Shown here piece after piece: positions 9,769 to 35,217 of a stretch of 64,000 nt of DNA. Source of the stretch: Podospora anserina. Taxonomy: Eukaryota. The position numbers were made by a program, and so were the translations under genes. The stretch spans positions 5,022,001 through 5,086,000 of the forward strand of contig CM030332.1 in the NCBI GenBank assembly GCA_017654855.1. Direction: 5' to 3'. The notes beneath the pieces were generated by a model. That model searched no databases and was not told the origin of the DNA. It saw only the letters and a list, made by a program, of their open reading frames with translations. Each line of letters opens with the position of its first letter. Position 1 is the stretch's first letter.

Positions 9769-10343
9769 TGTTACAATATAGCTTTTCTTTGTGGATTTTA
9801 CAGTGTATCTAAGCCCTGTATATTACAGGGCCTTAGAGGCAATATAATGGCTTAGATCAGCAGTGTTTAGGGACCACGGTTACCGGAACGGAACTCGGCT
9901 TCCTGAAGCAATCCGAAGTTCCGGAAAGCCGAGCCTTGCAGCGGTTAAACGGTAGCGCAACGTGGCTTGTAACGAGGCTTGCAACTTTATTTTTAGTTAG
10001 CGCACTTAGCGGGCGTTCGGGCCCGGGAACAGAGTCACTTCGGGGAGCGAGTGGAGGGCTAACGGCCTATAAAACCTCTGCCTCACACCCTATTTACTGT
10101 GATATTTCTTAGTCTATAAGGTTCAATCAATATACTAGTTTACTACACTTATTAGTGCCTCACAAGCCTATATTACAGTGATTATCTTCTATATATTACA
10201 GGGCGCCGCCCCTGTAATCTACTTTCCTTTAGTGCCCCGGCAACTATTGAATACTACAGTTAAAATCTTCTTCGCTCTCAGTATATTACGCCGATAGCTA
10301 TTTAAGCCTATATTTACAGGCCTTAATAGCACCTATTTCAACA
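9769..10343 (+). repeat. Short LTR (family D; TGTT...TTTCAACA), apparently split by a second solo LTR (family E, ~9821-10219)
   Basis: Starts TGTTACAATATAGC, similar to the LTR start at 16271 and to an inverted copy at 35162-35217. The inner unit has inverted termini TATTACAGGG/CCCTGTAAT and a TATA box at ~10068. TSDs are not clear. Confidence 0.55.
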
Positions 10344-10393
10344 TTATATAAAGATTATTTTTAACGTAAAAGGTTTATAGAGAAATACTACCT

Positions 10394-13300
10394 TATAACG
10401 AACCCCTATACAGAACCTCTGAAAGGAATATTAATTAAAGGTAACTTCTAATAATTAGTTCGGTGCAGCTAAACAGTGCACAACAAGATATCTCAATATA
10501 AACACTAAATACCGTAAATATAAACTAAATTACATACTGCGGAACTATCTATCTACACCGGCTAGTTCCTCCGTATATATAGACCTTAATCCTTTAGGTA
10601 CTTCCGTACTTAAATTACCTCGATCACTAAGCGCTCCTAGTAATCCATCCTAGCTCACTTTGCTCACCTAGCGCTCCTAGCGAGCCGGCTCACCTCTGCC
10701 AAGAGGTAAGCGCCCCTCTATCCTATAGCCTCGCTTTTATTTATTATTTAATTAGTTACTACGGCCTACTGTAGTCCCTACTTTGCTTTACTATATAGTT
10801 AGTCTATAATATAATATTCCCCCTCTTTATTTTTTATCCCGAAAGATTTGCTGCTATTATTTTTTATACTTTAATACTTTTTTTTTATTTTTATTATATA
10901 TGTATTCCCTTTCCCTTTTCCTTCTTTAGGCTTACTTAGCGTTACTAATTATATTAGGGCGCGTAGAGAAACGTTACTATAATATAGCTCGCGAACGAAT
11001 AGTCCTTTCCGATTCGATCGACTAAGACGGTATTAAAATTATACTTTACTCCCGTTATTAACGCGCGAAACTTTAAGGACGTTATATTATAAAGGAGGGG
11101 TCGAATTGCTATTCGAATTACGTTCGAGTAAATAAATTATATAATAATTCAAACGTAATTAATTTCTATAAATATTTAAGTACCGTAACTATACGTCCTT
11201 TTATTAATAACCGTAATAATAAAAAATTTATCGAAATAAAAAAAGATTAATAATAAAATAATTATAAAAAAAATTTATTAGCCGAAACGTTAAGTACCTT
11301 AACTTATTTACGTAAGTAGCGTACGTCGATACGTAACTAAGGTTTTAAACTCTTTTATCGAGGTATAGAATCGCTAAACGAAGTTAATAGTTTAACGTCC
11401 TTTATAAACTAATTAAATAAATAATATTTTATTAATCGGGCTTAGTTAATAGGTGCCTTTAGAGTCGTGGATTGGAAGGCTATTAATATTATTCCCTCGG
11501 ATCTTAATATTATCCTCGACTCCTTTATTAATTTCGATTAGCCGCCTAACCTTTCCCTAGGCCCGGACGTAGCCGGTCCTTTCTTTTTAACCCTGTAGGG
11601 TACCGCCGATAACCCGTTTTTTATTTCTTAAAGTAATTAAAACGCGTAATACTATTTATATCTAAGTCCCTTTATATTTTTTAATTTCGTAATATAATAT
11701 ATAGTATATCGGTTATTATATTAAAAATATAAGTTCGATTCTTATTAAAGTTCTTTAATATCGAAGTTTATACCTATAAACCTCGATATTAATCTTTTTA
11801 TTTACTTAAGTTTAGGTCGGTCCGGGTATTATTAATAAAATTCTTTTTACTTATCCGGGCAGTTAAGATTTGCCTCTAGTTCCTATAAATTATTTATAGT
11901 TAAATACTTTAACTAACTAATTAAATACTTTAATTAATTTTTATTAAACCGTAAATCTAATATCTTTTTTATATTATACTTTTTTTCTTCGTCCTACGTT
12001 ATTATTTATATATTAACCTTACTTACTGGTAATACGGGTTTTAAAAGTAAGATATAAAAGGTGTATAACCGTAAACGTATCGTACTAGGTAGCTCCAGTT
12101 CGAATATCGTTTTTAAGATTTTCCTTTTAACTTTAAATAGGCCTACTCTCCTGTAGTCCAGCTTCTTATTAAGTCTTTTAGTATATAAATTGCGTATAGA
12201 AAGGAATACTATATCCCCCCTCTTAAAGTAAGGTCCCTCGAGCCTTTTAGTATTATAGTATTTCCGTATCCTTTCCTTTATAAACTCTAGTTTTTACTTA
12301 AGTTTGCTGTAGATTATATATAGTTTATTTGCTTTAACCCTAGCCCTAGGTACCTTAACGCTAAGTCCCTGCCGTAAGTCTGCCTTATATTTAAAGTTTA
12401 CGAAGAACGGCGTAACTTTAATCGTCTCTATTAGTAATATATTATATGCTAATTATACCGTAGGTAACAGTTTAATCTAGTCGTTTTGCTCGAAATTAAT
12501 ATAATTCCTTAAATATACCCCGAGCTTCGTTATTAACGCTTTCCAAAACTTCGATACGAATTTAGTGTCGCGGTCCGTAATAAATTCCTTTAGCTATATA
12601 TATATTAATGTAATATACCGTAGTACTATATCCGTTAATTACTTTACTAATTAGGTTTTTTATAAAGTAAAAAGTATATTTATTTAATAAACTTATCGAT
12701 TACTGTTAATATACTATTATATTTAACGCCGATTACCGTATCCTTAGACTTTAGTAATTTAATAATAAAGTTTATTATAATTAAACTTTATAATTATTTT
12801 ATTATTAGTAATAGCTCTAGAAATCTATAAAGCTTATACTTCGTAACCCTTGTTTTTTCGTACGTATAGTATAATTGGATAGTTTCCTTAACGTCGTCCT
12901 TAATCTTTAGTTAATTAAAGTACTATTTAATTTTTTCTATAATTTTAGCAATATTTATATACCTTCCGAGCTTTAACCCGTAGATCTCTATTACTAATGC
13001 CGTCCTATTATTTAGTATTACGTACGCTCGATTCCTATACTATAGTCTTCCCTAATTATCTTTCTAGATACCTTATAGCTCCAGCTCTTCCTACTAGTAT
13101 TACTCTATAATATCACTACCTAATTTCCTTTAGTATTTATTAAAAATAGCCCTTTCGCGATATACTATATAGTATTCTATTTACGGCTATAGTAAATACT
13201 TAAGGGTACTATTTAGCGCCTCCTCGAGTAATAGTAGTAACTTTCTAAGTATATCCTTATAGTAGTCGGTACGCCTACTAAATACGTTTGCTTTAACGTT

Positions 13301-16270
13301 TTCCAAACCTTTCTTATAATTAATTTAGAAATTAAATTCCGAAAAAAACTTTAATTATTATATTTACCGTACGTTAAGGACCTTCGTAATAATAAAATAC
13401 TATAGATTTTTATAATCCGTATAGACCTATATTTTATATTTAATATTATTAAAGTATAATCTTTATTCCTCGAATATTTCGATAATAACAAGTAGTTCCT
13501 TATCGTAAATTAAATAGTTTTAACGTACCCCTTCGAGCTTCTTTAAAAAGAAAGCTACCGGGTATAACTTACCGTCATCGTTTCGCTACCTTAATTATCT
13601 ACCGATTATATAATCTAATATATTCGCCTCAACTTTAAATAGTTAACTAGGGTTTAGTAATTTAAGTACCGGGTCCTTTAAAATAGCCTCTTTTAGCTCT
13701 TAAAAGGCTTACTTTTTTTTTTATCCCTACCGGAACTCTACGTCCTTTTTAATTAAGTAATTAAGTAACCGCGCGATACTTACGTATCTACAAATAAATA
13801 TCTAATAGAAGTTTATAAACCTTAAGAATTCTTTAATATATATTTATAATTATAATATAGGCCAGTCCTTAATTACCGTAATTTTCCTAAGTTCTATACG
13901 AACCTCTCCTAATAATATTAAAGATCCTAAATATACTATTTTCTATATATAAAACTCATTCTTTTTTTTATTAATTAAAAATCCGGCTCTATATAGCGCG
14001 TTAAATATTTTTCGTACGTATCGCTTATACTTCTTTAAAGTACGTAAGTAAATAAAAACGTTATTGAGATAGTATATTACTATCTTATCGAAATACTTCC
14101 GGATTATATAATTAATAAAAGATTAGAATATTACGGGTATATTAATTAATTTAAATAGTGATATAAAATACTCGAAATAATTATAGGGTATACAAAATAC
14201 TATTTTCTATTTATCCCCTTCTTTAATCCGTATATAGGTATACCCGATAAATATATTTAAACGTATAAAATATTATACCTTTACTAATTAATTCTATAAC
14301 TTAAATATTAATAGTAATAAATAATTATTTTTTCTTATTTCGTTATTTAATTAATAGTAATTTATATATAATCGTAAACTACTATCCTTTTTTAGTATAA
14401 AAAATACGGGGTATTTTATTAATAATATAAATTCTTTAATATATTTTTTTTTAAACTTTTATTTAAATATTTCCGTAATTTTTTATTTTATTTATTATTA
14501 ATATAATAAACCTTAAATAACTATAGTTTAGTTTCTTTTTTTAATTTAATTTTATAGTTTTATAGTCTTCGCTTTAAAAGTCCCTCTAAATATTTAACCG
14601 TAAAAGTTAAATATCCTTAATATTCTACCGGTACTACTTTTTTCTTACTTTTTTCTATATTATTATAGTAAGTATATTTATGAACATCCGATATTTCTAT
14701 TAACGTTATTAACCCTATTTCTTTAATTTTACCGCCTATATCGATAAAATACATTATTATTTCTTAAGCTCCTTACGGTAGTACCGTGGAAAGTACTTAT
14801 CTTACACTCTACTCCGTATATACGCCTAATCTCCTATCGTTAATTAAATATTTTTGAAGCTTTTTTAATCGTAAGTAATTACTATCCCTTTAATCGATAT
14901 CTAAATTATAATCTTTATACTATAGTTACTCTAAAATTATATTTTTCGAGGGTCCTATATTTATAATATTAAATATAATTAATATTATTTTTCTTTCGAC
15001 TATAATATTTAAAAATAATATTTTTTTATAAATTTTTTATATTGGAAATAGTTTTTATATAATAAATTTTTTTTTTCTATAATATTTTAATTTAATATAT
15101 AAATTATAATAAAATTAAATTTATCTCCGTATTATTATTTACTAATATTATTATTTAAATATTTTTTTAATACGTTATAATTTAAAAGTATTTATCTCTC
15201 TTACTTTCTCCTTATACAGTAACGACCTCGCTAACGAGTATCGGGTCGTTATCCTATACTTTCGCCTTACGTTAATACCTTCGAAAATATTATTCGTGGT
15301 CCGTTAAAGGTTAACGGCCCCCGCGAAAGGCCGCGAATTATTTTTTAAGTAGTTATATCGTTTAAAAATATTTTTCTACTCCGGATTATTTAATAATATA
15401 AAGTCTTTTAATTATATCCGCCTAACTTCCTCCTATCTCCCGTCTTTTATATACTTAATATTCTTTTATATATATATTCGATAATAGTTTTTCGCTTTAC
15501 TTTATTAATACCTAATAACTATAATCTCTATAACTCTCGGTTCTTTCGATATAATAATTACTATAATCTTCTTTTTTATCCGAATCGTTTAAGTACCCTA
15601 TAGTCTTTCTTAAAATATTTTATTTTATTATAATTAAAATATTTAAAATTATTTCTACCCTAACTTTATAGTCTGTATTACTAAATAATATTAATTTCTA
15701 TAGGCCCTACGTATATAATCCCCGAAACGTACATTCCGTACGGCCGTCTTTTCCTTTTATCGTTAAGGTAGTAAAGTCCTTATACACGTATATCCTTACG
15801 CTCTTTACGGCACTAATATTATTAATCGTTAATACGGACTATTATTATAATATACTTATCGATAGTCTCCGGTCGCTCCATTCGATATAGTTTATCTTTA
15901 ACTTTTTCTTTAAACCCGTTATAAAATAATTATATTAACCCTTTATCGTTAATTATATTATAAAATATATTTATCCTAAACACTATAGTATAATCGGTAG
16001 CAAATCGAATCTATTTAAAGTTAACTAGTCGCTCCTAGACACGCCTACCCTCGTCGTACTCTCTAAATACCTTCTTAATCTTCTCTTTAAAACCTTTATA
16101 CGATTTAAAATACTTTTTCGTAATATCCTCCCTCTCGTTATATTTATTATCGAAGTAATCTCCCAAAATCGGCTCGAACTAAGTAAGTGTTTTGTCCTTA
16201 AGCCTAGACGCGGCATATACTACTTTAGATTCCTCGTCTGGGAAACGAGAAGGATAGTATTAAAAGTAAA
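10394..16270 (-). mobile_element. Ty3/Gypsy chromovirus (family A), RIPed, 5'-truncated; 3' LTR 10394-10811
   Basis: Colinear reverse complement of 26850-35006 (gag, PR, RT, RH, IN, chromodomain). Polypurine tract at ~10818-10828. The LTR 3' half matches 32280-32473. Confidence 0.9.
10950..11640 (+). pseudogene. Antisense extra ORF of Gypsy A copy 1 (Zn2Cys6-like + coiled coil), RIP-inactivated
   Basis: De-RIP of 11041-11148 reads MPCSRCQRAKLQGRCVMKEGSNRCSNCVRVNKSCDG. Downstream reads LTRLRKQRTSIRDQG..RGMESLDEVD. Boundaries approximate. Confidence 0.7.
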
Positions 16271-19200
16271 TGTTAAAATGCAGCATTTATTCATGGATTT
16301 TACAGCACTTGTTTATGGAATTCTGCGCCCACATTACTCCCAACAGCTCCCCCACTCGCGTTCCCAACGGCTCGCCCACAGCAGCTCGCCCTTAAGCTTT
16401 TAACGGCTCGCCCACAGAGGCTCGAGCGCTTTTAAGCTCCCAGGATTCCTTACCGGACCTCCGAGTAATAAGACCGTGGTATAAGAAGCCTTATAAGTAA
16501 TACGAGTATTTTATTGGTTACGAAATTAAATTACGAAAAGCTTTATAAGTAATACGAGCGTTTTATTAATAAGTTTATTACCTTATAACTTTACCGAACT
16601 AGAGATCTAAGTTACTAGGGTTATTAAGCGATAAGGAGCGATAAAAATAATAAAGAAGTTTAGGTACTTATAAAGAGCCCTTTTTTAATCGTAATAGTTT
16701 TTTTATTTTTTCTTTTTTTTAAGAAAAATAATAAATTAAATTAATTAAATAAATTAATTATTTATAATACTTTATATAAAATTATAATATTTTAATATAC
16801 TTTTTTTTATATTTATAAGAAATTTTTATTATACTTTTTTCCTTCGATAATTATATTATTATATTTAATAATATAGTCCGAAATTCGTTAAAACCTTAAA
16901 TAATTACTTTTCTTTTATAAAACCTTTATAGTATAAAGCTTTTAATAATTTTATTTTAATAAATTATTTTAATAAATTATAAACCCGGGCTTATTTATTA
17001 ACCTCGGCGAATATTATAGTACTATATTTTTAAAGCGAAATAAAAAAACTTAAATTATAAACCTTTAATGCTACCTCTAGTTTTCTATAGTTTATTCTCT
17101 AGGCCTTACTTATAATTTTATAGTAGGAATAGACTCTAGTATAGTAAATTAAATTCCTATAAATCTATAAATTATTTTTAACGTTTAAACCGAATAATTT
17201 ACGGTACGGCTCGAATTATAATTTAATTAACGGTTTTAAAATATTATAGGAAGGTTCTAAACTATAATTTAAACCTAAAATAATTAAATTAATAAATTAC
17301 TAACGGCTCTTTCTATACCTTTAAGTTCCGCTATAGTTTTGGGTAATAACTTAATACTATTAATTACTATAATATTATTTACTCCAGTAATTTTTAGTTT
17401 TTTATCGAAGGACCTCGCCAAATAAAGTTTTTAACTTAATAAAAAGTAAAGACTTACGGGTCCCGATAACTATTATTAATAAATCTAAACCCTCTCTATT
17501 TAATTATAAATCTTTAAGGTTACTAGTTTTTTTTAAAAATCTAATAATAATAGTTTTAATCCTCTTTAACGTTTAAAAAACTTATTTAATTTTAATTATT
17601 TATAACTTACTTACTTAAAATCCTTTAATTACTATTAAAATAAAAAATTACTTTATAATTATCTTTAATCGCCTAAAAGCTTAATATACTTTAACGTAAT
17701 TAATATTAAAAAATTAACTTTATAAAATTTATTATTTTTTAAAATTTAATAATATAATATTTATAATTAACTTTAATATTAAATTTAATACCTTTATTAT
17801 TAAACTATTAAATTTAAAAATTATAATTTAATTTATTAACTAAATTAATTACTACCTAAACTCCTTAAAATTTAATTTTTTATAATAATATAAGCGTTTA
17901 AAAACTTTACTTTATTATTAATAATTCCTTAAACCTACCTCCGGAGGAAACTTAAATTTAAATTTCTTTTAAAAAAACTTATTAGCCGAAACTCGGGATA
18001 TAATATTTACGACTTATTAAATACTCTCTTTACTATAAAATTAACGCCGTAATATTATTAAGAAAAGTAAAATATTTTAAAATAAATTTAAAAATTAAGG
18101 ATCTATTAATATCCTTATTATTAATAATAAATATCGGAAACGTAAAAAAAGTAATAATAAATTAAAAAAAGAGAATTCGTAAACTTTATTATAAAAGTTG
18201 TTTAACTAAAAAAACTTTATAAACGTAACCTTTATAGTCGGATTCGACCTAAAAATTAAGTTTTTTAATATACTAAAAGAATTAAAAGACTTTATTAATT
18301 AAAACTAATTTTTTAATTACGCTTATAAAATTTTATAAGAATCCTAAATATCTAATACCGGTTTTATTATTTATATTTATAATAATAAAAATTTATTTAT
18401 TTAACTTTATTAATTTAAGGATTTAAATATTATTTTAATAAATAATAATTTAGTTAGACTATAAGGTTAAAGGACCGTAAAAATTAATTTCTTTATTAAA
18501 ATTATTAATAAAAAACCTAGATTCTTTATTATTAAGTTTATTAAAGCCCTTTATATTCTTAGATTTCCATTAAATATTATAAACGGAAAACGTTTTTACG
18601 ATTTAAAAAATATTTTTATTAATTAAAAAATCTATAACAGTAAACGAAAGTTAATTACTTAATTAAATTTCTAAAAATCTAGCTTTTTTTTAAATATTAA
18701 AGGACAAAAGTCTTCTAGGAGGAATTATTAATATAATTACTCGACCTTTATAATAAAAATTTATAAATCTAATACTTATTTTACCGGAGCTTTTAATAAC
18801 TTTAAAAATATAAATATTTTAAAGGGGATTATCGATTTTACGTTTATTATTTTTCCAATACTTTTTTTTAAAGGACCTTCCGTAAAACTTATATAATTAG
18901 CGATTCTTTAATACATTCGTTTAGGCTATATTAACCTAGATTTTTTAAAAAAAACCTCCCTAATTATAAAAGGAATACTGAACTTCTAGAAACTAAAACT
19001 TAAAGACTTAATTTATAAGAGTTATAACGCTATTAAAATCCTTCGAAGGTTTTTTAAATAGGTAGTTCAAGACCCCCCTTTTATCTTAAACCGTTTAGAA
19101 AAAAAATATTATTTTTATTAAGCTTTTACTATTAACGAAAATTCTTTATACTTTTATTTTAATCGATAAGAAAATTCGATTTAAATAGGTTAAACTATTT

Positions 19201-21196
19201 AAATATAAGGAGGATACTATCGTAAAGGTTCGATTAATAATTAAAAATCTTAAAAATATATTTTAATAATATTTAAATTATTTTTATTATAACGGAAGTC
19301 AAGAAATTCTCCCTCTTTAAACTTACTTTATTAAAAAAAGTATTAACTTTAATACTTTAAGCCTTTGTACGTTTAATTAAAATAATTTTATAAAACGGTT
19401 TATTTATATAATTTTAAATAAATTACGTACTATAATATTTACGTTAAAACTTCTTCCTACTCTTTAAAACTATATAATTAATTTTATAATTAAAATAATT
19501 AATTATATAATTTAATTAATTAAAAAGTTTATACTTTATTAAGTTTTCTATAATAAATTATTCCTTAATTAACCTATTTATATACTTAACTTTACTAATT
19601 ATAAAATTATTAAAACTAAAGTTATTATATATATCCTTACTAAAGATCGAGTCTAAAGAAAAAAACTTACTCTTAAAGGAATAAAAAGTAAGTTTTTTAT
19701 AGTCTTTAGTTACTAAACCTATTTAATTTATTTAGGTTTAAATAAAGTTATTAAAATTAATTTTATTAAACTTTATAAAGACCTTTAAATTTAAATTTTA
19801 GGACTATAGAGTTTTATAAATTTATTAAAGATCGTTAATACTACTAAAGATCTAAAAGATTCTTTTATTTAATTACTTATTTTAAAACTAGATTTTAAAA
19901 TTATTATACTTCCTACGCTTATCACGACTATTAAAATACCTTTTCCTTAGGCTATTAAAAACTAACGTAAAGAATTTTAATTTATAAATAAAATAAATTA
20001 TATTAAATTAATTACTTATTTAGTTTCTAGAACCTAAAAAGCTATAGTACTTTAAACTAAAACTATAAAGTTTAATACTTTTAAATAAACTTTAAAATAT
20101 TCTTAAAAGGATTAATAATTAAAAATAGTTTTTACTAAATTATATTAATTCCTTATTATTAAAACTTTTTACTTTATTAATCGCTCTTAAATTAAAAAGA
20201 AATTTATTATTAATCGATAAATCTTTAAAAAAAAAAACCTATAAAGTATTATAGTAAAGTTTAAAGCCCGGTTAATAACCCGTAAATTCTAATAAACTAT
20301 AGGAATCAATTTTCTTTAAACCTATATATTTATTACCGGCCTTCCTACTTAAAGAATTATATTAATTTTAATAATTATTTTTAATTAAAATATTAAATAA
20401 ATAAATTTTATAAAAACTTTTTTTAACTCTAATATAAACTTTAATATATATATTAAATTACCCAAAGGACTACGTAAATACTTTTATAGTACTCTAAATA
20501 TTATTTTACTATTAAAGTAATTTAATTAGGATCTTATAGAGAACTAAGTTATCCTTCTAAAAAAGTCCCTCTATAGTTTAAAATAAACTTTTTACTTTTA
20601 ATAATAAAAAGTTTTAATTATAGTTAAGTTTTTTAGATTTAAACTATTAATTTTTAATACGGCTATATATTTTTATCTAAAGCATACTATATTTATTATT
20701 GTTAATGTGTAGGTACTACTAAATGCCCTACTTACTGCCCTACAGATTGATATTATAGTGGGCAGTACTGCTATAAGCAGTAATGGAACTTCCCGGCTTG
20801 GATCCCTTTAGAATATTCTTTACAAGGGACCCTTAAAGGCTTATAAGGCTACTGTGGCCTAAAGCTTAGTTAATAGATACTAGAACCTTCCAAAGTAGCT
20901 TATAGGCTTACGTAGTAAGTTGCCACAATAGTGTAATTTACAGGGCACCTCTGCTGCCGAAGGTTCTATGGATTTCCGTGAGTCTACACTAGACCCACCT
21001 AAGCCCACCAAATACCCCAAAGTGGTATAGGGGCTTCCAGGGCCTACAGGACCCACAGTAAGCCTACGAAGGCTTATATATAAACCTCTCCTCTCTCCTG
21101 TAGAATAGTTCTCTTTCTTTCCTTAAGGGCAAAAGCTTAAGGCTAAAGCCAAAGGCCAAGGTCAAGGGTAATAAAGGCAATTCTTATTCCTTATAT

Positions 21197-24100
21197 TAGT
21201 TTAGGGTGCGGCTATAGGCCTGAGAGTATGAGTAAGGAAGCGGGGCTCTCAGAGGACTCAGGGGTTTAGGGGTCATATATATAAGCGGTCTGCTTCGGAC
21301 ATTCTATTTTAGACAGGACATCGACTTTTATTCTTTTTTTTGTATTTTATGCCTTACACGCGTGTAGGCAATTCTGGCCCTCTAATCAGGCTAATCCGGT
21401 ACTTATTATATAGCCTGCGAGCCTATAGTGTCTTTTCTTTATCCTACGTAAAGTGCGGCCTGCGAGCGAGTTACTATCACGCAGGTATGTTTATTCTGAG
21501 ACCTGTTAAGGGTATATTTGTAGTGTTGTGGTTGTTTTATATGTTTTTTTACTATTTTAAATGGAGGTCGTACCCGGGTTAAATAAAGCTTAAGGTCTAA
21601 ACTAGACTTATAAGCTTTAGGTACTAGAGGAAGTATAAAATTACGAACGATAATAAGTATTAATAACTTTATTAAATCCCGCGAAGTTTAACGGAAATAA
21701 TTCTTTTTTATTTAATCGGATAAAGTTTTTTTATTATCGACTAAATTCTAAACTTTTTATCCGCGAATAAAAAGTTAAGTATATAGTTTAAATAGGATTA
21801 GGAAGTAAATTAAAAATATTAATTAAAACTAGTTCGTTAATAAATTTTATTTTCGCGTTAATTATTAAAGTCCTCTTTTATTTTTAGTTAGAAGGAATTC
21901 TTTTAATATATTATTTAACGATAGTAAATAATCGTAAGGATTTCCGGGTTAATTTAACTTAGGATATCGGGAACCTAAAAGTAAAGAAACGAAAATACTT
22001 TCCTTTTAATCTAAATAAATATAATTTATATTTATATATTAAAGTTATAAAGGATAACCGTTTTTATATTTTTAATAATATATATAAGGAAAAAACTATA
22101 TTATTAATATAAACGTAATAGTAATTATTGAGTATCGATATATTTAATAATATCCTACTTATTACTTTAGCTAACCTTCCTAGCGATAACTAAGGGTATT
22201 AAGCTCTTACGGCTCGTTCCGTAATAAAAATAACTATTCCGGCGGCTAGGTTTCCGGAATTATTATTATTTGTCCTCTCCCCGGCTACGAACCGCGCTTA
22301 CTTTAAAGATATTAAAACCCCTCGCTCCCTTTTTAATTAAGGTAGCCCGATTATAAGGCCCAACGCTCCTAACGTACTAGGTGGACCTCGTATTTACCTA
22401 AATCCTGCTACTTAAAATTATACTACGCTTCCCACTCGGTATACCGGATATCCCGCTCCTTTTCCTAAATTCGTATATTAATTCTAATAACCCGGATACT
22501 TATATTCTATAAAAGTTTACTCCGACTATCGCTACTTCCAGGGGTCCCTTACGTTTAATTATCTAACCTCTTATCTTATAGTACCTATATATTTTTTTTA
22601 ACGTAAATTCCTTAATTTAAAGAAAGTCGGTTTTAAAAGTAATTTTAAAGGAAAGTATTTTATAAAATATTTAAAGCGTTTCGAAAATACCTATAAAAAG
22701 TATTATATCGTAAAATTTACTTTTCGCGTTTATAAATTTAAATCCTAATATAATTTCGATATAAGAAAATAAATTAACGAATATATAAACCTACCTATAT
22801 TTACCGATACTTAGCTTATCCTAATTATTTACTTTAAACGCTTCTTTAAGATCTATAACCCCCGATAAAATAAAGATATTTATAAGGAATTAAATAACTT
22901 TTACGTTAAAGTTATTTTTAAAAGTATAAGCGAATTAAAGAAAATTATTTTTAATTACTTTAAATTACTTTCTTAAGTACCGACCGAAGAGAAAGAGGTA
23001 ATAAAAGTTAAAATTATTAACCGCTTTTAAATAAAATTCTTCAAATTAATAAGGATAACCTTTATTAACCGAGGAAGATCCGAACGTCGTTTAAAATCTA
23101 TAAATTTTATTACTTAAAGCGATTAAATTAATAATATAATCGAAGATAGGTATAACGTAAGAAAAAAAATCTATAAAAAAAATAAATTAATTATTATACC
23201 CTCCCTTATTACTTTTAATTAAACGGCCGAAATACTTAATTAATATATAGCGGTTAATATTATAATAAATAAAGAAATAGTATTATAGTATTTAAGGGTA
23301 AATATTTATAGTAATTTCTTTATACTAGGAAATAGTAAATTTAGGATAATAAAAACCCACGTTTAATATTTAAAAAACTAAATACTTTATTCCCTAAATT
23401 TTAATATTAATTTTAATAGGGAAATAGATTTATTTTTTAATACTTTCCTTATTATTAATATTAAAATTTAGTTCGGAAAATTAAAGGGGTAGTACCGCGA
23501 TAGCCCTCCCCCACTAAAAAAATACTTCTAGTGCGGTAAGACTAGTTATTACGTTAAATCGATAGAATATCCGAAAAAGGAGTATAATAAAGCGTAAGGA
23601 TTGTGCTATACTAAAGGAAGTAAAGTATATATCGGTAAAAAAAAGTAGCCGGAAAGTAAAAAAGTATAGTTTAATTAAAAAAATATAAGGAAAGTATAGT
23701 ATAAAGGAAAAGTTAATAACTTAGTTTATATTATAATTTTATTAAAACTAAAATTAAATAGGGCCTATAAAGTTTATACGAAATAAGTTAAGTACTAGGA
23801 AATTCGTAAAGGTAAAGGATATAGGCCCGAAATCTTTTTAATTAAAAGGAAAGAGTAAATAGTTATTTAAATAACTAAAGCTATAAATATTAAATTAAAT
23901 AAGCTTTATAAATACTTTAAACCTTACGTACCGTTTAACGAGAATTTAATTAATAATTATATTATTAAAAATACTTTATAACGTTATTTAATAGAAAAGT
24001 GGTCGCTTAAAAGTATTTTAAAACGTTTTAATAATACTTTAATAATCGTTTATAATTAAAAGGTAGAAGTAGGGGTAGGCGTATAAAAAGTAAAGAAAAT

Positions 24101-26400
24101 AAAGATCGAGGATTTACCGAAAAAGAATATAAATAATTTAGCTTTAGCCGAAAATCTAAAAATAATATTTACTTCCGCGTAAAAAAAATTAAAAATAATT
24201 AAGGAAGGAGTTTCGTCCGATTAGGGGAATAAAGTCCGGAGTAACTTAAAGTTATTTAATAGTAAGGTAGAGGACTCTAAAGATTATATTACCGAAAAAA
24301 CTAAAAAATATATTTATAATTAAATTAAATTTATATTAAAAAAATATTATAAGGTTTTACCTATATTTATTTACCGGTTAATAAATTATATAAAAAGTAT
24401 AGCCGAAGATATTAAAGTAATCGAGTAACGTAGATCTTTTAAGAGTACTTTAAATAAAAAAAAAAAATCTTATAAAAGGGAGAGGCCTTACCGTTAATAG
24501 TTCGGACGAATTTTTAAACGGTTAAATATAGTAAGATTCCTCCGTTTAATTAAAGGAAAACTATCCTTACTTTATATAGGATTACGGCGGATAGTAAATA
24601 TAGTATAGTCGAGGAAAGTATTTAAAAGAAGATTATCGAAAGTAAGGTCTAACCGGGTAATAGTTTAAAAGAGCGATTACGGACTTTACTATCTACGCCT
24701 ATTAGCCGGCTTTCCGGTAGTAAGCGAATTTTTCTAGGAGCCGTTACTCGAACCTATAACGTCCTATTACTATATTATAACTTTGTTTTACTAACTTTAA
24801 AGAAAGTATTAGTAATATTAAATATAGGCTCGGAGTGTAACCTAATTAGTAGGACTATAGCTAAGAGGTTTTATCTACTAATAGTATCGACGAACCTATA
24901 ATCTAAAGGCCTTTATAGAAATCCGGTTACGTTTATAGGTAAGACTTAGGCTCCAGTAATACTAACTAGGGTTTTAATTTTATATTATTTCTTCGTTATT
25001 AATAATATTAAAGCTTTAGGTTTCTATAACCTATTATTAAGTATCCCGTTTTTTACGGATATAAACCTTACTTTTAATTTTATAAAGGGCTATATAATTA
25101 ACGTAAATATATTATATAGGGGAAAGCTAATTAAGGCCTATATAATAAAAAAAAAAGTAATTAATAAAATAAAAGCGGAATATAATAGTAGGGATTGAAG
25201 TAATGCCTCTCCTGCTAGCTAACCCTTATAGGTATTTAAGGGATTAATTAATAAAGGAATACCTATCCCTAAGTAAGTAACGGAGGAGCTGGAGGAAGGG
25301 GAAGAAGATAATAAAGTTGTGGATAGCTTATATAAAAAGGTCTTTGGGTTGTAAGCCTAATTAGAGGGTGCGTAATAAGAAATAAAGGAGGAGGGGCTTA
25401 GAGGACTTAATAGACGCGGAAGGATTTAACTTATTAAGTACCTTCTCGTTTCCTTTTAAATTTCTATTAATTCCCCGGTTTACTTCCTTCCCTAATTCTC
25501 CGTTAACTTTAATTACTATTATTAAAGGAAATAAGTATATTATGGGTCTTCCCTTTAATTATAAAGGGTTTAGACTAAGTAGTATATCGAGTAATTCTTA
25601 ATAACTAAGTAGGGTAGTAACCCCCTTTAGGTTCCGCACTCCTATAACAATAAACTTGCCGCTCCTTTCTAGGCCTATAATTACCCGTCTCCCTATTTAT
25701 AACTACTTAGGATCGTTAATAATATACTTTTCGCTTAATTATATATTTAGTTTTATAGGATAAGAGTGGGCTCCTAAAGTTCTTTAGAGACGAAGGGAGG
25801 AAGTCGTTAGGTTACTAATTATAATAGCTCGATAGGGACGAAAGTATACTCTGAGATCCGAAAAGTAAAGGTACTTTTTTCTTTAATTAAGGGAGAATAG
25901 ATAAAGGGATAATAGGATTATATTGTTTTCCCTTCTTTCTACTAAACGATATTTTCTTTTTTTTTATTTATAAAGGATTTTTTTCTTATATACGTATTTG
26001 CCCACTAGTTTATAGTAGTCAAATGCGAAGGGAGGTTTGGTTTGGGGTGCGGCTATAGGCCTAAGAGTATAAGTAAAGAAGCGGGGCTCTTAGAGGACTT
26101 AGGGGTTCAGGGGTTATATATATAAGCGGTCTACTTCGGATATTCTATTTTAAACAGGACATTGACTTTTATTCTTTTCTTCGTATTTTATACCTTATAC
26201 GCGTGCAGGTAATTCTGGCCCTCTAATCAGGCCAATCCGGTGCTTATTATGTGGCCTGCGAGCCCATAGTGTCTTTTCTTTGTCCTACGTAAAGTGCGGC
26301 CTGCGAGCGAGTCACTGTCACGCAGGTGTGTTCATTCTGAGACCTGTTGAGGGTATATTTGTGGTGTTGTGGTTGTTTTGTGTGTTTTCTCACCATTTCA
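21197..26400 (+). mobile_element. Complete LTR element family C (LTRs 21197-21559 and 26038-26400); gag + aspartic protease only
   Basis: Paired ~363-bp LTRs with 4-bp TSD ATAT/ATAC. PBS at 21562-21580 and PPT GAAGGGAGG before 26038. CCHC knuckle ~23520-23570, protease LDTGSECNLIS ~24815-24850. No RT/IN motifs seen. Confidence 0.85.
21562..21580 (+). promoter_or_regulatory. Primer-binding site of element C, tRNA-Gln-like
   Basis: TGGAGGTCGTACCCGGGTT lies 2 nt after the 5' LTR. It is complementary to a tRNA 3' end ...CCGGGTACGACCT-CCA, which resembles fungal tRNA-Gln. Confidence 0.65.
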
Positions 26401-28892
26401 ATACCTTACTGTATTACAGTGCTTTACCTTCCTTCGGCACTGCCGTTGTATCCTCCCGCTTCCGCTTCCGCACTGCTGTATTTTACAGCAACCCTGTATA
26501 GGTTCTATATTATAGGCCTATCAGGGCTTACCAGCTAACAGTTATATATTATATATTTACTTTAACTTTATTACGGATAAATTAAAAGTATTAAAATAAT
26601 ATTATAGCCGGAAACGTTAGTATTTAGGGAGGCTCCACCTAACTTATTATCGATTAGCTTCTCGCTTATATTTAAGAGCTTAAGAATAAATTATACCTTT
26701 CTTACGATACCTTTACGTAAAAGAACGTTATACTCTATTAAGAGATTGATATTTTATATAGGGAGGGAAAGTATATTAAGCTCGAGGTACCCGATCGCTA
26801 TAGAGGTATAAAAGGAGAGCTAAGAAGATTCTTAATTTAATTTAAAGTTTATTTTCGGTACTATCCTTTTTATTTTCCAGATAAGGAATCTAAAGTTATA
26901 TACGCTACGTTTAAACTTAAAGATATAATATTTATATAGTTCGAACCGATTTTAGGAGACTATTTTAATAATATGTATAACGAGAGGGAGGATATTACTA
27001 AAATATATTTTAAATTATATAAAGACTTTAAAAAGAAAATTAAGGAGGTATTTAAAGAGTATAACGAGGGTAAGCGTATTTAGGAACGACTAACTAACTT
27101 TAAGTAAATTCGATTTACTACCGATTACACTATAATATTTAGGACGGATATATTTTGTAGCGCGATTAACGATAAAAGATTAATATAAATATTTTATAAT
27201 GGGTTTAAGGAAAAAGTTAAAGATAAATTATATCGAATAGAACGACCGGAAACTATTAATAAATATATTATAATAGTAATTTATATTAACGATTAATAAT
27301 ATTAACGTTATAAAGAGCGTAAGGGTATATACGTATAAGGACCCTATTACTTTAATAATAAAAAAAAGAGACGGCCGTATAAAATTTATATTTTAGGGAC
27401 TATATATATAGGGTCTATAAAAATTAATATTATTTAATAATAAAGGTTATTAAATTAAAATAAAAATAATTTTAAATATTTTAATTATAGTAAGGTAAGA
27501 TATTTTAAGAGGGACTATAAAGTATTTAAGCGATTCAGATAGAAAAAAGAGATTATAATAATTATTATATTAAAGGAACCGAAAGTTATGGAGGTCGTAA
27601 TTATTAAATATTAGTAAAGTAAAGCGAAAAACCGTTATTAAATATATATACGAAAGAATATTAAGTACGTTAAAGATAAAAAATAAAAGGAAATTAAGTA
27701 AATATAATTAAAAAATTTTATATTATTAAATAACCCGAAGTAGGAGGACGTTTTTAAACGATATAATTATTTAAGAAACGATTTACGGCCTTTCGCGGGA
27801 ACCGTTAATCTTTAACGGACTACGAATAGTATTTTCGAAGGTATCGGTATAAAGCGAAGGTATAAAATAACGATCCGACGCTCGTTAGTAAGGTTATTAC
27901 TATATAAGGAGGAGGTAAGAGAGATAAATACTTTTAGGTTATAGCGTATTAAAAAGATATTTAAGTAGTAATATTAATAAATGGCGGTACGGAAACGAAT
28001 TTAATTTTATTATAGTTCGTATATTAAGCTCGTATACTATAAAAAAAAGAAGGAATAAATTATTATATAAAGATTATTTTTTACGTAAAAGGTTTATAGG
28101 GAAATACTACCTTTAGATATTATAGTCAAAGGAAAAATAATTTTAATTATATTTAATATTATAAATATAAAACCCTCGAAGGATATAATCTTAAAGTAAT
28201 TATAGTATAAAAATTATAATTTAAATATCGATTAAAGGGATAGTAATTACTTACGATTAAAAAAGTTTTAAAAGTATTTAGTTAACGATAGGAGATTAGG
28301 AGTACGTATAGAGTAAAGTATAAAATAAGTACCCTCTACGGTATTACTATAAGGAGCTTAAAAAATAATAGTATACTTTATCGATATAAGTAATAAGATC
28401 GAAGAAATAGGGTTAATAACGTTAGTAAAAATATCGGAGGTTAATAAATATATTTATTATAATAAGGTAGAGAAAAGTAAAAAAAAAGCGGTATTAATAA
28501 AATATCGAGGATATTTAGCTTTTATAGTTAAGTATTTAGAGGGACTTTTAAAGTAAGGACTGTAAGACTATAAAATTAAATTAAAAGAAGGAATTAAATT
28601 ATAATTATTTAAGGTTTATTATATTAACGATAAGTAAAGTAAAGAACTACGGAAATACTTAAATAAAAATCTAAAAAAAAGATATATTAAGGAATTTATA
28701 TTATTAATAGGATACCTTATATTTTTTATATTAAAGAAAGATAGTAATTTATAATTATATATAGATTACTGTTAATTAAATAACGAAATAATAAAAAATA
28801 ATTATTTATTATTATTAATATTTAAATTACGGAGTTAATTAGTTAAGGCGTAATACTTTATACACTTAAATATATTTATCGGGTATACTTAT

Positions 28893-30969: not shown

Positions 30970-31601
30970 TATTAGCTAGTAAGCCCTAATAGGCCTATAA
31001 TATAGAACCTATACAGGGTTGCTGTAAAATACAGTAGTGCGTAAGCGGAAGCTGGAGGATACGACGGCAGTGCTGAAGGAAAGTAAAGCACTGTAATATA
31101 GTGAGGTATAAGGAATAAGAATTGCCTTTATTACCCTTGGCCTTAGCCTTTAGCCTTAGCTTTAAGCTTTTGCCCTTAAAGAAAGAAAAAAAACTATTCT
31201 ACAGGAGAGAGGAGAGGTCTATATATAGGCCTTCGTAAGCCTACTGTAGGTCCTGTAGGCCCTAGAAGCCCCTATACCACTTTGGGGTATTTAGTGGGCT
31301 TAGGTGGGTCTAGTATAGACTTACGGAAATCTATAGAACCTTCGGCAGCAGAGGTGCCCTATAAATCACACTATTGTAGCAACTTACTACGTAAGCCTGT
31401 AGCTACTTTAGAAGGTTCTAGTATCTATTGACTAAGCCTCAGGCTACAGTAGCCCTGTAAGCCTTTAAGGGTCCCTTGTAAAGAACATTCTAAAGGGATC
31501 CAAGCCGGGAAGTTCTATTACTGCTTATAGCAGTACTGCCCACTATAATATTAATCTATAGGGCAGTAAGTAGGGCACTTAGTAGTACCCAAACATTAAT
31601 A
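30970..31601 (-). repeat. Solo LTR family B, inverted
   Basis: Reverse complement of 28893-29527; 5-bp TSD TATAT. Confidence 0.93.
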
Positions 31602-32076
31602 TATATTATAAGTAAACTACTTTTAATAATAAATATTAAGGAAGGCTAAGTAACGATATTATTAAGTAATATTAATAGGAAGAATTAAAGTTATAAAGTA
31701 TTTAAAAAAATAATTAGGGAAAACTATAATATAAAAATCGAATATATATAATAATAAGTAATAGAATAATATTAGTAATAAAGATTTATAGATCGAAGCT
31801 CGGTAGATATATAAGTATTGTAAAGATTATAGAAAAAATTAAATAGTACTTTAATTAATTAAGGATTAAGGATAACGTTAAAGAAGCTATTTAATTATAC
31901 TATACGTATGAGAAAATAAAGATTATAAAGTATAAGCCTTACGGATTTCTAAAGCTACTATTAATAATAAAATAATTATAGAGTTTAATTATAATAAACT
32001 TTATTATTAAATTACTAAAGTTAAAAAATATAGTAACCGGCGTTAAATATAATAATATATTAACGGTAGTCGATAG

Positions 32077-32473: not shown

Positions 32474-33849
32474 GATAGGCTTACTAAATAAATATATTTT
32501 TTATTTTATAAAGAAATTTAATCGGTAAAGTAGTTAGCGGATATAATATTATAATATATTATATTAATATATATATAACTAAAAGAGTTTATTACGGACC
32601 GCGATATTAAATTTATATTGAAATTTTAAAAAACGTTAATAATAAAACTTAAGGTAATAAATAAAGCGTTATCGGCCTACTACCTTTAAATAAACGGTTA
32701 GACGGAACGGCTTACTTAAATTATAAAATAATATTTACGGAATTATATTAATTTTAAATAAAATAATTAAGTTAAATTATTATTTATAATATAATTAATA
32801 TATAATATATTATTAATTAAAACGATTAAAATTATATTATTCTTTATAAACTTTAAATATAAGGTAAACCTATAGTAAGGACTTAACGTTAAAGTATTTA
32901 AGGCTAAAATTAAAGTAAATAAATTATATATATTTTATAGTAAATTTAAGTAAAAATTAGAGTTTATAAAGGAAAGGATACGGAAATACTATAATATTAA
33001 CAAGCTCGAAGAACCTTACTTTAAAGGAGGAAATATAGTATTCCTTTTTATACGTAATTTACGTATTAAAAGACCTAATAAGAAGCTAGACTATAGGAAA
33101 GTAGGTTTATTTAAAGTTAAAAAAAATATCGGAAACGGTATTCGAATTAAAACTACTTAATACGATACGTTTAAAATTATATACTTTTTATATTTCACTT
33201 TTAGAATCTATATTACCGGTAAGTAAGGTTAATATATAGATAGTAGCGGAGGATAAAGAAAAGGAATATAATATAGAAGAAATATTAGATTTATAGTTTA
33301 ATAGAAATTAATTAAAATATTTAATTAATTAATTAGGATATCTAATTATAAATAATTTATAGGAATTAAAGGTATATTTTAATTACTTAAATAAATAAAA
33401 AAAATTTTATTAATAATACTTAAATTAATTAAAGCTTAAGTAAGTAAAAAATTAATATTTAAATTTACGAGTAATATTTATAAATTTAAATACCGAAAAA
33501 CTTTAGTAGGAATCAAATTTATACCTTCGACGTAATAATCGATGTACTATATATTATATTACGAGATTAATAAGTATAAAGAAATTTAAGCTTAATTAAT
33601 ACCGTATGCCTTTACCGTAATAAAAAAAAATTAAAAATATATTATTAACGAAAGAACTAAAAAGAACCGTACTTAAATTACAGAAAAGGATTTATAAACT
33701 TAAATATAAAAGAACCCTAATAGGAGTCGAACCTATATTTTCGACGTAATAACCGACGTACTATATATTATATTATAAAATTAAAAAGTATAAAGAGACC
33801 TAAATATAAATAGTACCGTATATTTTAATTACTTTAAAAAGTAAAAGGT

Positions 33850-34540
33850 ATATTATTAATAATATTTTACGGAGTTAAAAAAGAAGGACCGGCCGTATTA
33901 AGGTCTAAAGGAAGGTTGGAAGGCCAGTCAAAACCTAAGGAAAGATCTAAAAAAGAAAAGTCGAAAGGACTTAAGGAAGTAGGATTAAAAGAAAAAGCGT
34001 CGTTAAATAATAAAATAACCGGCGCGACTTACGTAACTTCCTTCTATTTAATACGTTCGGTAGTTTCTAACTTATTAAGAGAAGAGAGGCCGCGGGTAAC
34101 TATAACGGCTCTTTTATTTATAAGAAACTTACGTTAACGACGGACCCGCGATAAACGAACTAAAGCTTTAAAAGCTTTTTACTAATACTCGATTAAAAGA
34201 GTTTCGGTACGTTTCTTTTCTTTTTAAAGATAATATTACTCTCGCATAATTTTATTTCTTAAAAAAAGATTAGTAAAAAAAAAAGAGAGGTAACGGGAGA
34301 CTTACGTAATAAAATAGGGACACCGGTACTATTATATAAACGACTATAATATACGTAAGCCTTATAATACTTTACTTTATTTATTATATAGTAAAATAAT
34401 CTCTATAAATTATATTATAAGTAAAGTATAACGAGGAAACCGTTTTTAATAATATTTTAAGCGAGTTTAATATAATACTATATAAATAATAATAAAGGTT
34501 TTATTATAGATATAGCGTTAATTAGGCTATTAAAGAATAA
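33850..34540 (-). pseudogene. Antisense extra ORF of Gypsy A copy 2 (Zn2Cys6-like + coiled coil), RIP-inactivated
   Basis: De-RIP of 34429-34322 reads MPCSWCDSQGLSCRMMDGVKRCKACVRRGRSCDGTG. Downstream reads LVRLSRVRRQRKFL..KGAVMVTRGLSSLDELE. Boundaries approximate. Confidence 0.7.
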
Positions 34541-35006
34541 AAAGGAAGATTTATAAAGAAAAAAGAGGAAACGAAAAGAATATATATAGTCAATAAAACT
34601 AGGCTAACGGGACGTTAACCTAGAGGAGGGGCATTATATTACGGACCTAATATAAGTGGGGAGCGCGGGGCGCGACCGTCCAACTATTAGAACGGAAAAG
34701 TAGGGAAATCGGATTATTATTAGTATTAAAGGTAATAATTATAATTATTACTAGCCTTCGATAAACGATAAGTAATAATCGATATTATTATTAGTAATAA
34801 TAGTAATAAACCGGTCTATATATACGGAGGAACTAGCTAGTATAGATAAATAGTTCCGCAGTATATAATTCACAGCTTATATTTACGATATCTTATGTTT
34901 ACATTAAGACATCTTATTATACATTATTTAGCTGCACCGAACTAATTATTAGAAATTACTTTCAACTAGTATCCCTTTTAAAGGTTCTGTACAGGGGTTC
35001 GTTACA

Positions 35007-35161
35007 AATTCACAATTGTATTTACAGCATCTTGTATTTACATCGAGATATCTTATTATGCACTATTTAGCTGCACCGAACCAATTATCAGAAGTTACCT
35101 TTAACCAGTATCCCTTTCAAAGGTTCTATACAGGGGTTCGTCACAACAGGGGTTCGTCACA
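35007..35161 (+). repeat. 3' part of a further family A LTR, ending in a 16-bp tandem duplication
   Basis: Matches 34868-35006. ACAGGGGTTCGTCACA occurs at 35130-35145 and 35146-35161. Confidence 0.85.
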
Positions 35162-35217
35162 AATATATAAGGCTCAGATACACTGTAAAATCCATAAACA
35201 AAAGCTATATTTTTATA
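35162..35217 (-). repeat. 5' end of family D LTR, inverted
   Basis: 35162-35211 is 45/50 identical to the reverse complement of 9775-9824. Confidence 0.7.

Follow-up and report, generated by a model that had tools for sequence, protein, structure and literature searches.

A 64,000-nucleotide stretch of the Podospora anserina genome (GenBank assembly GCA_017654855.1, contig CM030332.1, positions 5,022,001 to 5,086,000 of the forward strand; here called the window, with positions counted from its first letter) contains a block, at about 9.7-36 kb, that is rich in AT. Within this block, on the minus strand, lies copy 1 of a retrotransposon with a long terminal repeat (LTR). By its reverse transcriptase (RT) and RNase H, found with Pfam, by integrase and chromodomain motifs read by eye, and by its 3' LTR, the element is a Ty3/Gypsy chromovirus, whose pol can be traced to about 11834. 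On the opposite, plus strand, in the space from the chromodomain-like pol end to the 3' LTR, we find an antisense gene. The sequence-only reading of this DNA had proposed here a hidden gene for a Zn2Cys6-like, coiled-coil protein, disguised by repeat-induced point mutation (RIP), and intact homologs and sister copies bear out the gene and its six cysteines. The stretch is heavily RIP-mutated, with a TpA/ApT ratio of 1.51 and a (CA+TG)/(AC+GT) ratio of 0.05; the genic part of the window, taken as control, has 0.59 and 1.30. No 5' LTR for copy 1 was found within the 64-kb window. The features of the element and its antisense gene are the following.

10394..10811, minus strand: 3' LTR of Gypsy copy 1, about 418 bp, with termini TGTGAC...GTGACA as in less mutated LTRs of the same type
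10394..10588, minus strand: conserved LTR half (R/U5 by position), common to all subfamilies, with 0-3% transversions against 26 of 26 loci of the same genome
10589..10811, minus strand: variable LTR half (U3 by position), type 1, carrying the word GCTCACC or mutated forms of it
10812..10825, minus strand: polypurine tract adjoining the 3' LTR, assigned by position and likewise placed in L044-L046
10951..11167, plus strand: exon 1 of the antisense gene, coding for an N-terminal helix and the six-Cys module, with ATA at the start column and three stops; aligns with intact P0158, P0160 and P0155
11047..11142, plus strand: six Cys columns, all Tyr codons here, with spacing x2, x8, x8, x2, x6
11168..11216, plus strand: inferred phase-1 intron of 49 nt, both splice sites mutated in the window copy
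11217..11640, plus strand: exon 2, coiled coil, basic RLR-Q stretch, RG-x-x-x-L-D/E-E motif and tail, with many stops and a TAA end at 11638-11640
11266..11273, plus strand: A-run one base shorter than in five paralogs, a frameshift in exon 2 seen by comparison of copies
11834..11978 (approximate), minus strand: chromodomain-like pol end, a motif read by eye
13301..14500, minus strand: RT and RNase H of pol (Pfam PF17919, E 2.2e-17; PF17917, E 1.9e-14; PF00078, E 9e-5)

The window copy is non-functional now, killed by RIP, and has no importance of its own. We are nearly certain that an antisense gene of this kind sits between pol and the 3' LTR, that it ancestrally encoded six cysteines, that BRTN, which Boty elements of Botrytis encode in antisense, is its homolog, and that it travels with the U3 as a cassette.

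The antisense gene and its relatives

In the frame that starts at 10951 the six columns read TAC (11047), TAT (11056), TAT (11083), TAT (11110), TAC (11119) and TAT (11140). Undoing RIP had been predicted to restore C-x2-C-x8-C-x8-C-x2-C-x6-C, and exactly this spacing is found in three intact proteins, P0155, P0158 and P0160, which align with the window column for column. The only genuine Cys codon of the window frame, at 11107, is not a cluster position, and in five paralogs of the same type 29 of the 30 cells at the six columns are Tyr codons and one is TGC. The exact Cys/Tyr pattern occurred in 1 of 2000 shuffles of 10590-11560, a figure to be read with the pattern having been chosen after it was seen, and over 9701-36000 the loose canonical Cys/Tyr pattern was not above chance (three observed, shuffle mean 2.05). 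Because of these two facts we argue the reality of the gene by homology.

Intact P0158 matches the window at 10990-11544 with E 9.6e-14 and 27% identity (E 3.3e-12 in a genome-wide search), and the closest relatives of the window gene include those of Thermothelomyces, Canariomyces and Parathielavia. A profile of exon 2, built from ten natural copies with no Cys information included, retrieved 215 proteins at E<=0.001; six cysteines lie upstream in 53 of the 150 matches listed, and in 49 of the 67 listed that have at least 160 amino acids. Inside the same genome, the little-mutated copies L115 and L123 have six true cysteines and are separated by 0-2% transversions from RIP-mutated copies of the same type with Tyr. 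A metagenome contig (L063) has five of the six cysteines and an integrase on the opposite strand, the same layout as in the window; in L064 the antisense gene is at the contig end, with no pol in view. RIP does not make transversions, and those that separate the window from L063 concentrate at third codon positions (31/104 versus 25/208, p 2.5e-4). The columns were thus not ancestrally Tyr or stop, since both the intact relatives and the unmutated sister copies have Cys there; by comparison of copies, the Tyr codons at 11047-11142 are RIP-mutated Cys codons. Weighing against this line of evidence, the excess at third positions is not significant relative to L064 (p 0.20) or L007 (p 0.14).

Unmutated copies were thus found in two sister subfamilies (L115, L123), and for the type of the window gene itself none was found in the genome by a 27-nt pattern (0 matches) or by protein search, both of which give lower bounds. 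Contigs of two sequencing runs (X7 and X8), which by our guess are RNA, are less mutated where they match exon 1 (11087-11129) and have Cys codons at the third and sixth cluster columns; they give neither strand nor splice joint. These contigs also cover the conserved LTR half, and their less mutated type-A' exon 1 was not found in this assembly. The little-mutated copies L115, L123, L125 and L118 (G000 C1, C6, C4) are partly truncated or nested, and each has a lesion in or near the gene, be it a stop, a frameshift near the start or a deletion.

We strongly infer, from the comparison of copies, that the gene has two exons. The start column of exon 1 is ATG in L002 and L007. A GTAAGT donor is kept in L002 and L003, and a branch site and AG acceptor in L007; the putative intron is 46-49 nt long, in phase 1, and begins 8-10 codons past the sixth Cys, with its signals present in four subfamilies and in L063. 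No spliced read was seen for it. Exon 2 is matched at 11278-11394 by a profile of intact relatives (E 8.6e-4), and the gene of L123 terminates at the same motif as exon 2 of the window copy. The basic coiled coil that had been read behind the cysteines stands, together with its basic stretch, but as a separate exon. The proposal that both parts share one reading frame does not hold: in the five paralogs they are in different frames because of one extra base near 11266-11273, and only its own 1-nt deletion lets the window copy read on into the coiled coil. Nor was the stop at 11059 once CAA for Gln, as had been suggested, since this is a Trp column in intact relatives. A single continuous open reading frame (ORF) for the window subfamily was considered and rejected on the paralog frames and the conserved intron signals, and an assembly error as the source of the deletion is unlikely, given that contigs of two other DNA runs (X3 record 2, X4 record 10) span the site at the length of the window.

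Some of the genes, namely those of L019, L028, L029 and type 3 (L065, L069, L071), appear intronless, which suggests intron gain or loss inside the family. Their loops are x9 and x7, like those of a large clade of database proteins.

Transitively, through intact relatives, the window gene is homologous to BRTN. A profile of ten family members finds the Botrytis protein annotated 'Putative BRTN' (P0249) at E 2.8e-58, P0249 and P0158 share 28% identity (E 5e-8), and a profile-profile comparison of the relatives of the window gene (A5) with the BRTN side (A8) gave a probability of 99.3. It counts against the homology that P0249 compared directly with the mutated window gives E 0.49, no match, so that the link runs via the intact relatives. 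Like the window gene, BRTN is encoded antisense in a Gypsy element with a chromodomain, in the space that separates pol from the 3' LTR, and like the family it has six cysteines, a coiled coil and a C-terminal SQG motif. The first loop is x8 in the window gene and x6 in P0249; the window gene is a dead copy, about 28% identical by way of an intact relative; and in this genome the gene is present as eight types tied to eight or more U3 types. The kind of gene is already known through BRTN, and hence not new as a kind; the brtn class was reportedly described in 2011, by Zhao et al. (Virology 417:248). Named homologs span Sordariomycetes and Leotiomycetes; genomic context was looked at for L063 and L064. 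Four members of the family (P0171, P0182, P0199, P0241) bear unrelated automatic names (seryl-tRNA synthetase, DUF465, aminopeptidase), probably because of the coiled coil.

In the excerpts considered of literature citing brtn (PMC7264820, PMC8365987, PMC4227169), the original description aside, there is no function or zinc-cluster assignment for BRTN, and PMC7264820 calls the function of such antisense ORFs unknown; brtn is not mentioned in the part consulted of 10.1101/2022.03.07.483234. Antisense ORFs of plant Ty3/gypsy elements (Grande gene23, RIRE2, Retand and PvRetro13), as presented in sections of PMC7264820, have the position and orientation of the window gene. Grande has its own antisense promoter, and a nuclear role is suspected for the plant ORFs. 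These sections mention no six-Cys cluster and the word 'zinc' is absent from them; we liken the plant ORFs to the window gene by position and orientation, not by homology.

The six-cysteine module and its fold

The comparison of intact members points strongly to a product of about 190-200 residues whose Zn2Cys6-type cluster comes with a long coiled coil and a basic stretch, and whose tail is acidic. In the AlphaFold model of intact P0070 (pLDDT 85) the Cys module has two short helices, preceded by an N-terminal helix and followed by one of about 60 residues, and the median net charge in 162 intact proteins is +8 before the RG motif, which is the basic stretch, and -11 in the tail. The six cysteines are invariant in 58 aligned sequences, which had been selected for six Cys, and UniRef labels some relatives as Zn(2)-C6 proteins.

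The fold is likely, as far as models and profiles go, to be of Zn2Cys6 type, and the module probably works like a Zn2Cys6 domain. In a PDB search with a profile of 55 intact members, GAL4 and PUT3 filled the top four of 14 rows (E 0.036-0.089). With a model of the domain (pLDDT 78.5), the first 14 Foldseek rows were all Zn2Cys6 proteins, the best being Pho7 (root mean square deviation (rmsd) 2.1 A over 35 columns), and with the full model 11 of the 15 rows listed were Zn2Cys6 chains. VIA gave zinc-cluster matches with Z 2.2-2.5 and rmsd 1.8-2.2 A over 33-37 residues, and an Atlas feature search returned ascomycete clusters only. With the Zn2Cys6 factors Gal4, Put3, Ppr1, Hap1, Leu3 and Pho7 the family shares the order C-x2-C...C-x2-C, the two short modelled helices and the coiled coil that follows.

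A number of results pull the other way. None of the PDB profile matches is significant (E 0.036-0.19), nor are those of Foldseek for either model (E>=1.0), and the VIA scores do not exceed Z 2.7, zinc clusters ranking level with unrelated chains. Of 55 intact members, 6 match the Pfam zinc-cluster model PF00172 at E<=0.1, the best of them at 1.7e-4, and Pfam finds no family in the window frame or in two other mutated copies; a check with PF00172 and AlphaFold, which had been proposed for the window gene, thus leaves the window frame without a family, a minority of intact members with a match, and models that rank Zn2Cys6 first without significance. In Gal4-type proteins basic residues in loop 1 contact CGG, and K/R-K at positions 3-4 is present in 4 of 38 six-residue first loops of the family. 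A Pro late in loop 2 is found in 3 of 56 intact relatives.

Several features set the family apart from the known Zn2Cys6 factors. Loop 1 has 6-8 residues and is x6 in 38 of 56 intact relatives; the basic K/R-K is usually missing from it, and the x8 of the window subfamily is outside the canonical x6 of C-x2-C-x6-C-x5-12-C-x2-C-x6-8-C. The conserved residues are in the second half (SSRC, CVR), there is an extra N-terminal helix, the coiled coil is much longer (about 60 residues) and the protein has only about 200 residues; moreover, most members miss the Pfam model, and most of the U3 words considered below are not based on CGG.

The gene and the U3 as a cassette

We surveyed 50 element 3' ends in 50 loci, 47 of them with their own LTR half. 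The six-Cys/Tyr pattern is present in 39 of the 47 3' ends (38 distinct copies, L004 being the same as L005) and absent in eight. The antisense genes fall into eight types, each with its own U3. In the chromodomain region the median transversion distance is 1.1% within types and 1.4% between them, whereas between types the gene (23%) and the U3 (21%) are as distant as shuffled sequences. Type 1 comprises two related U3s that are 11% apart, the second of which lies on a pol 9-10% away with a gene only 2-6% different; the U3 of L002 is of type 1. Because gene and U3 vary together on a nearly uniform pol, a unit of about 0.9 kb, from mid-LTR to about 11520, is by these distances exchanged as a whole. 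A second, divergent antisense gene of the window is of the same type as that of L115 and sits in another copy of the element, beside LTR halves at 34813-35141:

33825..34510, minus strand: second antisense gene (type 5/D; L073), Cys columns 34334-34423, intron at about 34305-34259, exon 2 with E 3.7e-10

The stretch 11540-11770, between the chromodomain and the cassette, is common to nearly all subfamilies with 1-5% transversions, encodes the end of the antisense protein, and contains insertions or repeats in some copies. It may be the crossover zone of the cassette.

A structurally similar situation is known for crapaud in the Podospora anserina complex. As described in the portions used of PMC10787394, crapaud is a chromodomain Gypsy element with LTRs of about 400 bp and a conserved 3' half, the U3 half defines 14 subfamilies, and the internal region is independent of the LTR types; two ORFs are drawn, and the U3 variation is left between selection on promoter function and chance. 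The size class of the LTR, the conserved LTR half, the variable U3 and an internal region that does not track it are common to crapaud and the element of the window, which we liken by structure and not by sequence. A term search found neither 'antisense' nor 'zinc' in the main text and two supplements of PMC10787394, in the form in which they were available, and in the searchable text of the preprint 10.64898/2025.12.02.690432 the antisense gene is not mentioned.

Repeated words are a property of the variable half of the LTR. For each U3 type we took the natural copy with the fewest mutations and scored its repeated 7-mers against 300 shuffles, and seven of nine types score above at least 298 of the 300; the two exceptions (types 3 and 9) are known from more mutated copies only. 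The conserved LTR half of the same seven copies scores 1-5, compared with a null of about 3. The words are type-specific (GCTCACC, TAGCAC, GGATCGA, GGACCG, GTGATAA, ATGATCA, CTGATCA) and frequently stand in inverted pairs. The U3 of the window retains four copies of GCTCACC or mutated forms of it, at 10653, 10662 and 10688 on the plus strand and 10705 on the minus strand, and a less mutated type-1 copy has five exact ones (score 29 against a null mean of 5.5; 0 of 300 shuffles). Comparison of U3 types 1 and 3 shows the word to be spared, with transversions at 2/49 positions inside it and 21/126 outside (p 0.026), a comparison that the aligner may favour. CCAAT boxes are found in seven of nine U3 types. 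To judge from these counts, the U3 words look functional.

A possible regulator of its own LTR, and the alternatives

Our reading of the whole, which we prefer by a narrow margin over its being wrong, is that the window contains a RIP-killed accessory gene of the brtn family, from a fungal Ty3/Gypsy chromovirus, that encoded a regulator of its own LTR. Taken by itself, the claim that the product regulated the element in any manner has an even chance on the sequence evidence, and the narrower one that it bound a word of its own U3 is tentative, falling clearly below that. In a live element the gene would be transcribed from the U3 side of the 3' LTR, and the protein would dimerise through its coiled coil, bind the repeated, often palindromic words of the U3 and tune transcription from the LTR, activation being likelier than repression because of the acidic tail. 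If the template were switched once within the stretch shared behind pol, and the strand transferred by way of the common R region, gene and U3 would move jointly onto another pol. Splicing, the zinc cluster, dimerisation, and DNA binding with its target are putative. By analogy with the immunity regions of lambdoid phages, such cassettes could be exchangeable modules of regulator and operator, each zinc-cluster protein reading the word of its own U3, a proposal that we consider doubtful. Were it true, subfamilies that share one gag-pol would be controlled separately, without cross-activation, BRTN would gain a function, and the U3 subfamilies of crapaud type would be explained.

On a distant pol, L118 combines a gene nearest to type C with the type-C word (score 14 against 1.7), as expected of a protein that goes with its word. 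Other observations speak against the regulator. L063 and L064 have genes nearest to type A and lack the type-1 word, L063 fits the type-4 words better, and of the tests of word against protein type across backbones one in three was in favour. The type-7 word GTGATAA resembles a site for a host GATA factor. Gene and U3 adjoin, moreover, and linkage alone predicts that they vary together without any co-evolution.

These same observations leave room for a real accessory gene that acts elsewhere, be it in bringing the integration complex into the nucleus or tethering it, in RNA export or in particle assembly, with the U3 words as sites of host factors and the co-variation produced by the template switch alone. 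We regard this as possible, although distinctly less likely than a regulator of the LTR. Gal4-type residues for DNA contact are poorly kept, two of the three outgroup tests of word against protein type failed, and host factors probably act on the U3, given the CCAAT boxes in seven of its nine types and the GATA-like words of some; sections of PMC7264820 propose that ORFs of this sort serve in nuclear import or have retroviral-accessory roles. Cluster, coiled coil, basic stretch and acidic tail are nevertheless the architecture of a transcription factor, the words differ by cassette, L118 keeps its word with its protein type on a distant backbone, and had the protein a generic job, one would expect it to vary as little as pol.

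It is unlikely that the six cysteines bind metal in another arrangement, such as two separate sites, the likeness to Zn2Cys6 being convergent. A first loop of 6-8 residues in place of a fixed 6, the weakness of PF00172 and the want of a significant fold match would suit such an arrangement, and AlphaFold may lean to known six-Cys folds; against it stand the invariance of the six cysteines in the aligned sequences selected for them, and the fact that the sequence profile, Foldseek and the Atlas structure search all rank Zn2Cys6 proteins first.

A factor that counters silencing or manipulates the host (versus RIP, quelling or heterochromatin), diversifying in an arms race, is more improbable still. 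Extreme divergence of the gene on a uniform pol fits diversifying selection, and the host has strong RIP; yet the analyses made found no link to silencing proteins, most examined copies are RIP-mutated, and an arms race with the host leaves the parallel change of the U3 unexplained. That no gene ever existed, and that Tyr-rich RIP sequence produced the pattern by chance, agrees with the commonness of the loose pattern in RIP-mutated DNA and with the lack of a Pfam family in the window frame, but has practically no probability left, being already refuted by the intact homologs, the unmutated sister copies, the conserved intron position and the third-position bias.

If the preferred reading, a brtn-family regulator of the LTR, is true, one group of fungal LTR elements, like complex retroviruses, carries the gene for a sequence-specific regulator of its own. 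A six-Cys, Gal4-like protein tied to arrays of type-specific U3 words makes both the function of BRTN and the origin of the U3 subfamilies directly testable, and cheaply so. Many small gene models in ascomycete genomes that are annotated as 'Zn(2)-C6' or hypothetical may be genes of retrotransposons.

The surroundings of copy 1 provide some minor observations. The 52 bases directly outside the 3' LTR (10343-10394) are 96% identical to 28062-28113, a piece of pol in opposite orientation, and because of this match copy 1 may sit inside a further copy of its own family. Further to the left, 9775-10340 is moderately mutated, has a 50-base match to 35162-35211 and is possibly an LTR of another family. 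Beyond the gag of copy 1, the stretch 16500-20700 is very AT-rich (GC 17-24%) and is followed at about 20696-21495 by a different LTR-like repeat, which recurs at 26037, 28889 and 30972-31610.

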